Shown piece after piece: positions 32,677 through 37,755 of a DNA stretch of 64,000 bases. The first letter of the stretch is position 1, and every line of letters begins with the position of its first letter. This DNA is from Gammaproteobacteria bacterium (GTDB taxonomy: Bacteria; Pseudomonadota; Gammaproteobacteria; SZUA-152): positions 14,443 through 78,442 of the forward strand of contig JAKISS010000002.1 in assembly GCA_021648485.1 (NCBI GenBank). Direction: 5' to 3'. The position numbers were made by a program, and so were the translations under genes. The notes below the pieces were generated by a model, which was not told where the DNA came from, ran no database searches, and saw only the letters and a list, made by a program, of their open reading frames with translations.

Positions 32677-33321
32677 CTACTCGCCGATATCGGGTGTCTC
32701 GGCACCCATACCGGCGAGAAACTGCGCCACAGCTTCCATTTCTTTCTCTGTCATTTTTGCGGCGATGTCCTGCATGATCTCATTGCGGTCGTTGCTGCGC
32801 GTACCGGTTTTAAAATCCCGCAGGGTCTTGATCACATAGCCCGGCTTTTGACCGGCAAGGCCCGGAATCCCCCCCGGCCCATTACCTGCGCCATTGGGCC
32901 CGTGGCAACCAGCACAGGCTGGCAGATGCGTATAACGATTGCCACCCATGTAAAGCTTTCTGCCTGCCACAGAATTCGATGCGGAATCGGCCTTCACCTT
33001 TTGTGTCGCAAAATAGGCTGCAATATCCATGATGTCCTGCTCAACCAGCCCTGTCACCATGCTCTGCATGGAGGGATCCTGGCGGGCACCAGACTGAAAG
33101 TCACGAATCTGTCTGGACAGATAATTGGCATTCTGACTGGCAAGATTCGGCCAGTCCGGACTGAAACTGTTGCCATCCAGGCCGTGGCACCCTTGGCAGG
33201 CAGCTGATTTAAGCTGTCCCTCACTGATACTCCCTCCAAGCTGCTCGTGCGGGCGCTCTGAAGAATAAGTACATACAGGTATACTGATCAACAGACAAAA
33301 AACAACGCGTAACGACATCAT
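32677..33321 (-). CDS. cc4: Diheme cytochrome c4
   Basis: Signal peptide; two heme sites CQGCHG and CAGCHG. Confidence 0.85.
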   Translation of the reverse strand: MMSLRVVFCLLISIPVCTYSSERPHEQLGGSISEGQLKSAACQGCHGLDGNSFSPDWPNLASQNANYLSRQIRDFQSGARQDPSMQSMVTGLVEQDIMDIAAYFATQKVKADSASNSVAGRKLYMGGNRYTHLPACAGCHGPNGAGNGPGGIPGLAGQKPGYVIKTLRDFKTGTRSNDRNEIMQDIAAKMTEKEMEAVAQFLAGMGAETPDIGE

Positions 33322-33414: not shown

Positions 33415-33807
33415 TTACTCGATGCTACTAAAAAAAGCGGCAAGATCTGCGATATCCTGATCACTAAGCTCGGCGGCCATGCCATTCATAATAGGATCTT
33501 TACGAGCACCTGTCCGAAAAGCCTGTAATTGCTTGCGAAGATAAGCCGCATGCTGACCGGCCAGAATAGGATAGGCTTCTTTGGTGCTTTTTCCGCCCTT
33601 GCCATGACAGATCTGACAAGCCCGCGCTTTGGCATTACCCTCCTTAACGCTGCCTGCCGCATATGCGTTGCCTATTCCCATCGGCGCGATAACAATACTC
33701 ATGGCCAGACTGGTCATCAGTGTAAACACATGCCTTTTAGTGGTCGTATATTTCACTTGCGTGATTAAAGTTGTATTGGTTGTACTTGTGGCCATCAGCG
33801 TTCCCAT
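33415..33807 (-). CDS. Monoheme class I c-type cytochrome (c5-like)
   Basis: CQICHG heme site. The real start is probably internal (GTG at 33756 or ATG at 33717), giving signal peptide ...SIVIAPMGIGNAYA. Confidence 0.75.
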   Translation of the reverse strand: MGTLMATSTTNTTLITQVKYTTTKRHVFTLMTSLAMSIVIAPMGIGNAYAAGSVKEGNAKARACQICHGKGGKSTKEAYPILAGQHAAYLRKQLQAFRTGARKDPIMNGMAAELSDQDIADLAAFFSSIE

Positions 33808-33931: not shown

Positions 33932-34591
33932 TTGGACAAACACACCGTGACCTCTCCTGACTTTCAAAAAACGAATCCAGCAATCCGTTATCGCACCGCC
34001 AGCTTCCTCATCAGCGCTGCCCGGCTCAACCAATTGCCGCAGGACTGTGGCCCTGAGGTCGCTTTCGCAGGCCGTTCAAATGCAGGAAAATCAAGTGCAA
34101 TCAATCGGTTATGCGAACAAAAATCGCTAGCCCGAACCAGTAAAACCCCCGGACGCACCCAGCTGATCAATCTTTTTCAACTGGATGGACAACGCCATCT
34201 GGTGGATTTGCCCGGTTACGGTTACGCCAAAGTGGCCGAAGAAATTAAACGCCGCTGGCAACAAACCATGGAAGCCTATCTTTCCGAACGCCAATCGTTG
34301 CGCGGACTGATTTTGCTCATGGATGTGCGCCACCCACTCAAAGAGGTGGATCAACAGTTGCTGGACTGGTGCTGGCGGGTAAACATGCCGGTACATGTGT
34401 TGCTGACCAAAGCGGACAAACTTAAACGCGGCGCGGCGCAAAATACCCTGATGCAGGTGCAGCAGGAACTCAAGGCCCATGCGCCTGATGGCCTGTGCAG
34501 TACACAATTATTTTCCGCACTCAAAGGCACGGGGTTGACCGAAACCTACGCTGTACTGGATCGCTGGCTGGACTTTGGTGATAAAAAATGA
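33932..34591 (+). CDS. engB: Ribosome biogenesis GTPase YihA/EngB
   Basis: [15 protein letters not shown] (G1), DLPGYGYA (G3), TKADK (G4). The track start is TTG; the exact start is uncertain. Confidence 0.9.
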
Positions 34592-34595
34592 GGAT

Positions 34596-34718
34596 AAAAA
34601 ATCCCCGGTGGCACCCGATCATCGGGACAGCCTCCGGGGCTAAAAGCACCCGACGTTGGGGACGCCGGGCTTGAACCCGCTAGGGAGGGAAGCGGGGAGC
34701 AGGCATCGCGCCTGCTCA
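34596..34718 (-). ncRNA. Candidate ~123-nt structured sRNA in the polA-engB intergenic position (Spot42/ErsA position)
   Basis: Four consecutive hairpins on the minus strand: gagcaggc/gcctgctc; cccgc/gcggg with loop uucccucccua; cccggcg/cgucggg with loop uccccaa; and terminator ccccgg...ccgggg followed by AUUUUUU. Same orientation as polA and convergent with engB. Confidence 0.45.
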
Positions 34719-34723
34719 TACAC

Positions 34724-34750
34724 TAAGACGGGCAGGATCATAAAAAGTTG
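34724..34750 (-). promoter_or_regulatory. Possible sigmaE/AlgU-type promoter for the sRNA candidate
   Basis: Minus strand reads gCAACTT - 16 nt - TCTTA, compared with the consensus GGAACTT-N16-TCTGA. Confidence 0.3.
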
Positions 34751-35013
34751 CAGCCTTCACAAAAATATTTTGTTTGACACAAAATCTGCTTTAAAAAAGC
34801 GCCGAGTATTTAACACGTCACTTGCCAACGTCACTACAACATACCCCCCCACCGTACCGGAACACTTACCCGACGGAGGGATTAACCGATTAATTTAGGT
34901 TAAACCTCCGGGTTCCGGCTAAAGACATGCGTAACAATACTGTTTTCAGTAAAAAATACTAACAGAGAATTTTTAATCCTTAATTCATATTGCAGGGAAG
35001 ATGTTAACCCTTT

Positions 35014-37755
35014 CTAATGCGCTTCATCCCAATTGCTACCTGTACCTATATCCACCACTAACGGCACCTTAAGTTCAGACACCCCGATCATTAACCGGTT
35101 GATTTCAATCTTTGCGGCCTCAATGTGTTCATCCCGAATTTCAAACACCAATTCATCATGTACCTGCATGATCAACTTGATATCCAATTCGGCAGATTCA
35201 ATCCAGCGATCCATCACAATCATCGCGCGTTTAATAATGTCCGCAGCTGTGCCCTGCATGGGTGCATTAATGGCAGTGCGTTCGGCATACTGACGACGCT
35301 GGCCGTTACGGTGATTGATATCCGGCAGATACAAACGACGACCAAACACCGTCTCCACATAGCCCTGCTCATGAGCCTGTTCTCGAGTATCGTCCATAAA
35401 TTTTTTCACGCCGGGATAACGTTCAAAATAAAGATCAACATATTTTTGGGCATCACCGCGCGTAATACCCAGTTGTCGCGCCAACCCGAAGGCTGACATG
35501 CCATAAATCAACCCGAAGTTAATGGCCTTGGCACTACGTCGCTGGTCGTTATCCACTTCATTCAACGGCACAGCAAACACCTCGGCAGCAGTGGCACGAT
35601 GAATATCTTCTCCCGCTGCAAAGGCCTTAAGTAAACCTTCATCACCAGAAAGATGCGCCATGATGCGCAACTCTATCTGCGAATAATCAGCCGCCAGCAC
35701 GCTGAAACCGGCTGGTGCGATAAAAGCCTGACGAATGCGTCGGCCTTCGGCACTGCGTACCGGAATATTTTGCAGATTAGGCTCGGATGATGACAACCGT
35801 CCGGTGCTCGCCACGGCCTGATGATACGAGGTATGTACCCGCTTTGTGCCAGGATCGATACGCTGCGGCAGTTTGTCGGTATAGGTGGACTTCAGTTTGC
35901 TCATGCCCCGGTATTCAAGAATCAGTTTGGGCAATGGAAAATCATGAGCCAGTTCCGCTAACACTTCTTCAGCAGTGGATGGCGCACCTTTTGGCGTTTT
36001 TTTCCGGACTGGCAAACCCTGTTTCTCAAAAAGAATTTTTTGAACCTGTTTGGGTGAGGCAAGATTAAATTCTTCACCCGCCACCTCATAAGACTCGTTT
36101 TGAATCTCCAGCATGCGCTGCGCAAGCTCTTCACTCTGTTTCGCCAACATATTGGCATCAATCAACACGCCGTTACGTTCAATGTGTGAGAGCACGGTCA
36201 ACAAAGGCAATTCAATATCCCGAAACAATTCGGCGAGCCGGGGCTCCTTTTCCAGCTGAGGCCACAATGTCTGGTGCAATTGCAGGGTCACATCCGCATC
36301 TTCTGCGGCATATGGACCAGCAACACTGATAAGCACCTGATCGAAAGTGATTTGTTTGGCACCCTTGCCCGCTACGTCTTCAAAGTGAATGGTGTTGCGG
36401 TTGAGATATTTAAGCGCCAGTGAATCCATATCATGGCGCGTGGCCGTGCTGTCCAGCACGTAGGATTCCAGCATGGTATCGAACGCCACACCACGCAGGG
36501 TAATACCATGATTGGCCAGCACGCTCATGTCATACTTGAGATTTTGCCCAACCTTGGCCTTGTCCGCATCTTCCAGCAACGGACGTAATTTCTCCAACAC
36601 AAAATCACGATCCAGCTGTGTACTGGCATCGGCATCCTCCAGGGTAATCTGGTGAGCCACTGGTACGTAGGCCGCCTCCCCCGCTTTTACCGCAAACGAC
36701 ACACCGACGATTTTTGCCTGCATGTAATCAAGACTCGTGGTCTCCGTATCGAAGGCAAACAATTCAGCCTGTTGGAGCTTTTTCAGCCAGGCTTCAAAAG
36801 CTGACTCGTCCAACACAATGTCGTAACTCACATCGGCTGCTGGCGCACGTTCTTCCCCCGTTGTCTGTGCAGAATGATCATCCACATTTTGTGCGTATTT
36901 GCCCGGCAACAGCTCAGACAACCAGGTTTTAAATTCCATTTCAGCAAATAATTGTGTCAGGCGCTCCGTATCTGCCGCCTGTACTTTGAGTTCAGTCGGT
37001 CCGGCATCCAGCGGTACGTCACATTTAATGGTGGCCAACTGGTGGGATAGTGGTAACTGCTCCAGTACATCACGCAGGTTCTCCCCCACCTTGCCAGTAA
37101 TTTCACCTGCCCTGGTGATGATTTCATCCAAGGTACCGTACTGGGTCAGCCACTTCACCGCAGTCTTGGGACCAACCTTGGGCACGCCGGGAATATTGTC
37201 CACGCTGTCACCCATCAAGGTAAGGTAATCAACAATACGTTCCGGCGGAATCCCAAACTTATCCACCACCCCTTGCGGATCCAATGTGGAGTTATCCATG
37301 GTGTTCATCAGCGTGACATGCTGGTTAACCAGCTGCGCCATATCCTTGTCGCCTGTGGACACCAGACAATCCATCCCCATCTCTGTGGCTTGTCTGGCAA
37401 GCGTGCCGATCACATCGTCCGCCTCCACCCCGTCCACAATCAACATCGGCAGCCCCATCGCCTCAACAATAGCGTGCAACGGAGCAATTTGCTCACGCAA
37501 CTCATCCGGCATGGGGGGACGATTAGCCTTATACTCGGCGTAAAGATCATCACGGAAAGTCTTACCCTTGGCATCAAATACCATCGCCATGTATTCCGGC
37601 TGAAAATCTTTCAGCAGGCGGCGCAGCATATTGACAACACCATACACCGCACCTGTGGGTTGACCCTGGGAATTACTCAACGAGGGCATGGCGTGAAAGG
37701 CGCGATACAAATACGACGAGCCATCGACGAGAATCAGTTGTTTGTTTGCTTTCAT
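35014..37755 (-). CDS. polA: DNA polymerase I
   Basis: 913 aa with 5'-nuclease, 3'-5' exonuclease and polymerase motifs (DYSQIELR, QVHDELV). Confidence 0.97.
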   Translation of the reverse strand: MKANKQLILVDGSSYLYRAFHAMPSLSNSQGQPTGAVYGVVNMLRRLLKDFQPEYMAMVFDAKGKTFRDDLYAEYKANRPPMPDELREQIAPLHAIVEAMGLPMLIVDGVEADDVIGTLARQATEMGMDCLVSTGDKDMAQLVNQHVTLMNTMDNSTLDPQGVVDKFGIPPERIVDYLTLMGDSVDNIPGVPKVGPKTAVKWLTQYGTLDEIITRAGEITGKVGENLRDVLEQLPLSHQLATIKCDVPLDAGPTELKVQAADTERLTQLFAEMEFKTWLSELLPGKYAQNVDDHSAQTTGEERAPAADVSYDIVLDESAFEAWLKKLQQAELFAFDTETTSLDYMQAKIVGVSFAVKAGEAAYVPVAHQITLEDADASTQLDRDFVLEKLRPLLEDADKAKVGQNLKYDMSVLANHGITLRGVAFDTMLESYVLDSTATRHDMDSLALKYLNRNTIHFEDVAGKGAKQITFDQVLISVAGPYAAEDADVTLQLHQTLWPQLEKEPRLAELFRDIELPLLTVLSHIERNGVLIDANMLAKQSEELAQRMLEIQNESYEVAGEEFNLASPKQVQKILFEKQGLPVRKKTPKGAPSTAEEVLAELAHDFPLPKLILEYRGMSKLKSTYTDKLPQRIDPGTKRVHTSYHQAVASTGRLSSSEPNLQNIPVRSAEGRRIRQAFIAPAGFSVLAADYSQIELRIMAHLSGDEGLLKAFAAGEDIHRATAAEVFAVPLNEVDNDQRRSAKAINFGLIYGMSAFGLARQLGITRGDAQKYVDLYFERYPGVKKFMDDTREQAHEQGYVETVFGRRLYLPDINHRNGQRRQYAERTAINAPMQGTAADIIKRAMIVMDRWIESAELDIKLIMQVHDELVFEIRDEHIEAAKIEINRLMIGVSELKVPLVVDIGTGSNWDEAH

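Follow-up and report, generated by a model that had tools for sequence, protein, structure and literature searches.

In Pseudomonas, the spacer between polA and engB encodes ErsA, a small RNA (sRNA) of 132 nucleotides (nt) whose expression depends on sigma22 (AlgU) (PMC8575079, PMC5819304). ErsA represses the porin OprD (PMC5819304), and ErsA-mRNA duplexes have been demonstrated in vitro (PMC8575079, PMC5819304). The sRNA sX13 of the Xanthomonadaceae, whose gene also lies downstream of polA, represses its targets through C-rich loops and G-rich motifs in ribosome-binding sites (RBSs), without Hfq (PMC3771888). A third RNA, anti-hemB (Burkholderia RNA 7), was defined computationally (PMC1950547) and is the same as ncS04 of B. 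cenocepacia, for which a length of 105 nt, a mapped transcription start site, a Northern signal and Hfq binding were reported (PMC5688073); in a 2026 preprint it is presented as an antisense regulator of hemB tied to low salinity (bioRxiv 10.64898/2026.09.01.748597). Here, a 64,000-nt stretch of DNA from a gammaproteobacterial genome (contig JAKISS010000002.1, positions 14,443 to 78,442; hereafter the window) was analyzed with regard to an element on the minus strand between polA and engB. This element is a real sRNA gene, a divergent and unannotated member of a known and widespread family. It probably encodes an independent, trans-acting RNA of ~125 nt that belongs to an old, widespread family convergent with engB, with a sigmaE-type promoter and with C-rich loops that would pair with G-rich RBSs.

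The polA-engB spacer measures 422 bp and separates engB (33932-34591, plus strand), an open reading frame (ORF) with an MMR_HSR1 GTPase domain, from polA (35014-37755, minus strand), which has DNA_pol_A and exonuclease domains. The predicted transcript of the sRNA unit extends over ~125 nt (34720-34596, minus strand, as for all of its elements below), where the U-run marks the 3' end and the 5' end was placed by means of the promoter geometry and an alignment with the 132-nt ErsA. Its first hairpin, stem-loop 1 (SL1, 34717-34697), is formed by an 8-bp stem (GAGCAGGC/GCCUGCUC) with the loop GCGAU, and all 8 pairs covary among 43 homologues. SL2 (34696-34676) has a 6-bp stem, in which 4/6 pairs covary, and a 9-nt loop, UCCCUCCCU (34690-34682), that includes the anti-Shine-Dalgarno sequence CCUCC. 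Within SL3 (34670-34648; 9-bp stem, 6/9 pairs covarying), the loop CCCCA (34661-34657) becomes UCCCCAA when the closing U-A pair opens. A U-rich linker, GCUUUUAG (34647-34640), is single-stranded according to the fold and the comparison of homologues, and leads into a Rho-independent terminator (34639-34596) that consists of the hairpin GCCCCGG...CCGGGG (34639-34603), with a variable inner extension, and the tail AUUUUUU. The outer six pairs of the terminator are almost invariant among homologues, and 5 nt separate the end of the U6 tail (34596) from the engB stop codon. The terminator loop of the window copy is not C-rich, whereas that of many distant members forms a third C-rich stretch. Folding of a 136-nt stretch gave a minimum free energy of -65.9 kcal/mol, compared with -48.4 +/- 4.0 kcal/mol for 200 dinucleotide shuffles (z = -4.42), none of which (0/200) was as good as the native sequence. 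A preliminary description of this region had placed hairpins, terminator, promoter and C-rich loops at these positions, all of which were confirmed. Its reading of them as a discrete sRNA gene that occupies the slot between polA and engB, oriented as Spot 42 and ErsA are, is supported as well.

The element is conserved in the manner of a structured RNA. Besides the window, blastn detected it in 12/13 further genomes of this genus and in three from another genus of the family, and the same-family copies are always located between a promoter-like block and the engB stop. The loop cores CCUCCCU (SL2) and CCCCAA (SL3) are invariant in 16/16 close homologues, whose stems vary in a compensatory fashion while the loops stay fixed, and UCCCUCCCU and CCCCA(A) show hardly any variation in the loops of the 43 homologues. 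Standard pairs occupy 95.5% of the cells of the 43-sequence alignment, which was fitted to the covariance model and is thus biased towards the structure. Changes on both sides are found in 20/29 pairs, covariation being present in all four helices, so that the covariation of the hairpins in relatives which the preliminary description had named as a check was found. Not one of 500 shuffled controls (0/500) matched the native alignment on any measure, and when the 3' partners were slid by 1-3 columns, pairing fell to only 26-49%. Moreover, an independent MAFFT/RNAalifold run returned 10 compensatory pairs. An ORF for 57 amino acids on the same strand (34546-34719, with its ATG within UAUGAGC) was considered as the encoded product and rejected. 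Relatives have CTG or ACG in place of its start codon, the genus shows a frameshift caused by a 2-nt indel that separates SL2 from SL3 differently among its members, the frame extends through the terminator into antisense engB, and the substitution pattern is RNA-like and compensatory; the likelihood of a protein product is practically nil.

Directly upstream of the transcript lies a promoter of the RpoE/AlgU (sigmaE, envelope-stress) type, on which transcription is predicted to depend. The -35 element, G-CAACTT (34751-34745, with CAACTT at 34750-34745), is conserved in the genus and the family, where relatives have TGAAACTT or TGAACTT. It is followed after 16 nt by the -10 element CG-TCTTA (34730-34724, with TCTTA at 34728-34724), for which the family consensus is GTC(A/T)(T/G)A. 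Position-specific counts over the members yield tGAACTTt ... GTC(A/T)(T/G)A, which is the RpoE/AlgU consensus. A motif of this type (AAC(T/C)N-N15-18-TCNN(A/T), ending <=8 nt from the RNA start) is present directly upstream of the RNA model match in 51/55 members, but in just 0.47% of 45-nt windows drawn at random from these loci, in agreement with the sigmaE-like promoter named in the preliminary description. This evidence is independent of the RNA models because the promoter is included in none of them. The ErsA promoters of Pseudomonas (TGAACT-N16-CTCAGA) fit the same pattern. Furthermore, genes for an RpoE equivalog (TIGR02939, 327.6 bits), for an RseA-like protein and for MucB_RseB, RpoH and Hfq are present in the genome from which the window derives. 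Upstream of its rpoH gene (contig C47, minus strand, ~70 nt before the gene) the sequence GGAACTT-N16-TCTTA is found, with a -10 element identical to that of the sRNA, and GAACTA-N16-TCTAC was spotted by eye upstream of rpoE. Just upstream of the -35 element of the sRNA, an A/T-rich dyad, CAAACAAAATATTTTTGTG (34758-34776, minus strand), is kept within the genus, and the Pseudomonas ErsA promoters have A-tracts at the matching position; the dyad could be UP element-like or a regulator-binding site.

Covariance models were used to follow the family further, namely R1, built from 16 sequences of the window's genus and family, and the broader R2; the E-values of these models, as of the R3 model introduced below, are rough, and the taxonomic spread is given as counts together with named loci fetched through EngB. 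Full-length R1 matches were obtained in 152/401 sampled genomes of the class (~38%), mostly with one copy each, and beyond the class a phylum-level sample gave just two marginal matches. Among named records, the closest is a metagenome-assembled genome (MAG) labelled Ectothiorhodospiraceae bacterium NORP100, and the sRNA sequence is present in hydrothermal-vent metagenomes. A few genomes (G075, G421, G235, G354) have tandem arrays of 2-4 copies. Two tandem copies are also found in Ectothiorhodospira mobilis DSM 4180 (L064; 2185-2306 and 2379-2494), and tandem copies, which are sibling sRNAs, each have their own sigmaE-like promoter. engB is convergent and lies right behind the terminator in 22/27 distant loci. 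The upstream gene is polA in many distant loci and elsewhere a histidine kinase, aroQ or an ABC permease. Since engB is invariant and the upstream gene variable, the constant address of the family is "behind engB", and neither "behind polA" nor "before hemB". This bears on the idea that the element is no gene of its own, being either a structured 3' untranslated region of polA with its terminator or a repetitive palindromic element. Its place downstream of polA in the same orientation and a true dispersed repeat nearby (34856-34920) would suit such an origin, which is nonetheless very unlikely: the promoter stands directly ahead of the RNA in the 51/55 members mentioned above, several members have no polA upstream, the spacer between polA and the promoter differs between strains and species of the genus while sRNA and promoter are kept, and the sRNA is single-copy in its own genome.

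The constancy of this address also raises the main alternative, an action in cis on engB, which is the engB counterpart of the antisense-to-hemB idea for anti-hemB. Convergent transcription and a two-way terminator would set the formation of the engB 3' end, its stability or read-through, and the RNA body would be secondary. The convergent position behind engB is indeed the one invariant genomic feature where the upstream neighbour varies, and the authors of the 2026 preprint favour a cis/antisense action of anti-hemB on hemB. We regard this alternative as unlikely. The sRNA does not overlap the engB coding sequence, and the engB strand has CUAAAAGC after the hairpin, with no U-run. Invariant C-rich loops on covarying stems and a dedicated stress promoter would be left unexplained, ErsA and sX13 regulate distant mRNAs in trans, and tandem duplicates occur.

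The trans-acting sRNA proposed here is a relative of anti-hemB. When the whole window was scanned with Rfam in gathering mode, no family reached its cut-off. Under relaxed thresholds the anti-hemB family, RF02837, matched the window copy over the full model (1-81) with 37.6 bits and an E-value of 3.4e-7. Ten loci retrieved by R1 do pass the RF02837 cut-off with 49.8-52.8 bits (L021, L023, L026-L028, L030, L033, L136, L064 and L067), that is, 8/40 distant loci and two named ones (Ectothiorhodospira mobilis and a Gammaproteobacteria MAG), which makes the window RNA, by transitive homology, a divergent member of the family. The likeness extends to details. The first hairpin of the Rfam model is near-identical in sequence (UCCCCGCUU-CCCUCCCU-AGCGGG); the CCUCCCU-loop hairpin, the second hairpin, the GC-rich terminator CCCCGG...CCGGGG and the U-tail are all present in the window; and the members that pass RF02837 are convergent with engB and have the same promoter type. 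Differences are also apparent: the window has the extra 5' hairpin SL1, which is absent from the 81-position Rfam model, its SL3 loop is CCCCA whereas the Burkholderia consensus has a U-rich loop, and its upstream neighbour is polA and not hemB. At two of the passing loci, L021 and L033, the upstream gene is aroQ and an ABC permease, respectively, and in the window the RNA does not lie upstream of, and antisense to, hemB. Linkage to hemB looks like a peculiarity of the Burkholderiales, and a hemB-specific antisense role does not fit with constant engB synteny, a variable upstream gene and a sigmaE promoter.

A relation to ErsA (Pseudomon-1, RF01719) is indicated from both directions. R1 and R2 match 16/16 Pseudomonas loci, always on the strand that is convergent with engB, with 18.5-38 bits and lengths of 131-136 nt that agree with the 132 nt published for ErsA, and coincide with Pseudomon-1/ErsA in the three Pseudomonas loci scanned with Rfam. 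All 36 matches in 285 kb of named loci fall at the one position, and scores at named loci rise with the more general model, as is expected of true remote relatives. In the reverse direction, R3, an ErsA-only model built from Pseudomonas sequences alone with an independently predicted structure, matches 37 family members with coordinates unchanged and E-values as low as 1.5e-8, among them same-genus and same-family orthologues of the window copy. Both RNAs are located in the polA-engB spacer, convergent with engB, with 132 nt for ErsA and 125 nt in the window; TGAACT-N16-CTCAGA and CAACTT-N16-TCTTA lie at equal distance from the RNA, and the 5' hairpin and terminator are similar. One difference is that ErsA has a U-rich, unstructured seed (domain II) where the window has the stable C-rich SL2 hairpin. 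In the Pseudomonas loci (L065-L116), domain II, with the invariant GCUCCU...GUGUUGGCAGA, is aligned at the SL2 position, and a C-rich stretch, CCCUCCCCA, is conserved in its terminator loop. ErsA appears to be derived, its SL2 having melted into a single-stranded seed. From these comparisons, the relation between the window family and ErsA seems to be one of homology rather than of a shared address.

Similarity extends to sX13. On true sX13 loci, R1 and R2 score 24-31 bits, and the Rfam sX13 model (RF02232) cross-matches family members below threshold. On the window itself it gives an insignificant 17.7 bits (E 0.56; gathering score 50), and in a search of the window's own genome it had no match at E<=0.001. 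Both genes lie downstream of polA, both RNAs have stable CCCC-loop hairpins and a terminator, and the sX13 motifs UCUCCCU and CCCCAA align with SL2 and SL3. sX13 has three stem-loops with apical C-rich loops, whereas two are C-rich in the window (SL2 and SL3) and the terminator loop is not. In contrast to the window, the two sX13 loci examined lack an adjacent engB, and their promoter motif is degenerate (GAACCA-N16-TGTTA). At these loci (L130, L131) the degenerate motif stands ~10-45 nt before the Rfam sX13 start, and the R1 alignment begins ~13 nt ahead of the Rfam model start; an sX13 equivalent of SL1 may straddle the annotated 5' end. With its repression by way of C-rich loops and G-rich RBS motifs, sX13 is the best functional model for the window RNA.

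Spot 42 shares with the window RNA the slot between polA and engB and the orientation, in Enterobacterales and Vibrionales (PMC3771888; Vibrio locus), and is repressed by cAMP-CRP according to a reference given in PMC3771888. The preliminary description saw no similarity in sequence to Spot 42, and this was confirmed: the Spot_42 model (RF00021) has no match on the window at E<=10, and neither R1 nor R2 matches the Vibrio Spot 42 locus (L119). Spot 42 also differs in being without C-rich loops. It is not known to be a sigmaE-dependent RNA. Of the enterobacterial sigmaE-driven sRNAs, MicA, RybB and MicL lower the synthesis of envelope proteins; their regulatory logic may match that of the window RNA, but sequence, structure and locus are unrelated, and at E<=10 none of them was among the Rfam matches to the region. 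The Betaproteobacteria toxic small RNAs (RF02278), short hairpin RNAs with the loop CCUCCUCCC, likewise gave no match at E<=10, and an anti-Shine-Dalgarno-like loop motif is the one feature they have in common with the window RNA.

These matches also bear on whether the polA-engB slot is merely occupied by a new, lineage-specific sRNA, as the preliminary description had suggested. The absence from the window of any Rfam match at or above the gathering score and the lack of similarity to Spot 42 would agree with this. Such an origin is extremely improbable in view of the full-length, sub-threshold anti-hemB match, of the homologues in 152/401 genomes of the class, some of them genuine RF02837 members, and of model matches with ErsA and sX13 in both directions, and the suggestion is refuted. 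The Rfam scan that had been proposed along with it returned the sub-threshold anti-hemB match, and neither Spot_42 nor ErsA at E<=10.

A common origin of ErsA, anti-hemB/ncS04 and sX13 as a sigmaE-driven, engB-anchored family is probable. On balance, the evidence inclines slightly towards a wider statement, that these three and the unannotated copies constitute one ancient sigmaE-dependent family of the engB/polA locus in the Gammaproteobacteria, including the Burkholderiales in the GTDB sense. Rfam lists RF01719, RF02837 and RF02232 without a clan, and a literature search of limited coverage, which is no proof of absence, found no paper uniting ErsA, anti-hemB and sX13. If the statement is true, the family would be among the most widely conserved envelope-stress sRNAs, essentially confined to the class, and the unrelated, CRP-controlled Spot 42 would have taken over the slot in Enterobacterales and Vibrionales. 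Under the same condition, anti-hemB would be neither Burkholderia-specific nor a hemB antisense RNA, and its function would be testable as that of an envelope-stress regulator instead. Results would become transferable among ErsA (Pseudomonas virulence and antibiotic susceptibility), sX13 (Xanthomonas virulence) and anti-hemB/ncS04 (Burkholderia). For the genome studied here, the outcome is the confident annotation of an sRNA gene missed by Rfam thresholds, with a likely sigmaE input and likely seed regions. Rfam provides no annotation at all for 31 of the 40 distant loci scanned, and a broader model could annotate most family members.

The following process can be proposed for the trans-acting RNA. 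Envelope stress would free sigmaE, which would lead to transcription of the ~125-nt RNA. The U-tail of the terminator and the U-rich linker would contribute stability and might serve as a handle for Hfq, with the linker GCUUUUAG as a possible contact. Subsequently, the C-rich loops of SL2, with its CCUCC, and SL3 would pair with G-rich or Shine-Dalgarno regions near the start codons of several mRNAs, and pairing would lower the translation and stability of these mRNAs, as for sX13. Hfq may assist, as reported for ncS04 and some ErsA targets. As in the preliminary description, the loops are read as seed candidates, with the SL2 loop likely to be the main seed and the SL3 loop the second. One may speculate that envelope proteins would be the likeliest targets, by analogy with sigmaE-dependent sRNAs and with ErsA-OprD.

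A different role for the same loops would be that of a decoy, in which CCUCC mimics the 16S anti-Shine-Dalgarno sequence or the RNA sequesters an RNA-binding protein. The SL2 loop has CCUCC, two to three C-rich loops per molecule correspond to a typical decoy layout, and in sX13 compensatory mutations failed to restore regulation, which left an RNA, a protein or the ribosome possible as partner (PMC3771888). Repression by sX13, on the other hand, depended on its C-rich loops as well as on the G-rich motifs of the mRNAs (PMC3771888), ErsA forms duplexes with mRNAs in vitro, and Hfq is the only protein partner reported. A decoy function is accordingly judged quite unlikely, and pairing of the loops with mRNAs is preferred.

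Candidate targets were sought in a scan for 7-8-nt complements of both loops ahead of ORFs, which is crude and noisy, has no statistical weight and was not used as evidence. RBS-proximal complements, UAGGGAGG(G) and GGGAGGGA, occur ahead of several signal-peptide proteins; several candidates have a signal peptide or lipoprotein signal, and one is Lon-like by its N-terminus. In the same genome, the RBS of rpoH, AGAGGAGGGAGAGCC-AUG, has a 7-nt perfect complement to the SL2 loop. A circuit of sigmaE, the sRNA and rpoH is possible, and the rpoH RBS may equally be just a strong Shine-Dalgarno sequence.

Several observations weigh against the reading of the window RNA as a sigmaE-controlled, trans-acting member of this family. 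Regarding membership, the 37.6 bits of the window copy are below the RF02837 gathering score of 49.5; RF01719 has no match on the window at E<=10, and R3 does not reach the window copy (L001) at E<=1. Scores of the covariance models on ErsA and sX13 arise partly from generic GC hairpins and the terminator. With respect to the promoter, the -35 element in the window reads CAACTT and not GAACTT, and a loose sigmaE pattern gives 52 matches genome-wide, no more than chance, among which only rpoH and, by eye, rpoE are informative. Since the motif by itself is not rare genome-wide, it is conservation and context that support the promoter assignment. The level of ncS04 was unchanged in every condition tested in B. 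cenocepacia (PMC5688073). The seed of ErsA is a U-rich unstructured region and not a set of C-rich loops (PMC8575079); because the seed differs, the biology of ErsA cannot simply be transferred, and the target repertoire probably differs. The target scan gave anecdotal candidates only. Concerning expression, the sequencing runs with the sRNA sequence are metagenome contigs from relatives 90-95% alike and show no transcript ends, three small vent metatranscriptomes gave no match at 85% likeness, and RNA runs sought for the Ectothiorhodospira mobilis locus were not found.

Two further features of the neighbourhood can be observed. Between polA and the sRNA promoter, a long hairpin on the minus strand (34856-34920, core 34882-34906) has a core of 23-25 nt (GTTTAACCTAAATTAATCGGTTAAT) that recurs at at least 20 further sites of the genome with 95-100% identity, and is a dispersed element that resembles a repetitive extragenic palindrome (REP) or miniature inverted-repeat transposable element (MITE). 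On the other side of the locus, two cytochrome c genes with Cytochrom_C/CBB3 domains (32677-33321 and 33415-33807, minus strand) are divergent from engB; for anti-hemB loci, a cytochrome-c biogenesis neighbourhood is described in the preprint (bioRxiv 10.64898/2026.09.01.748597).

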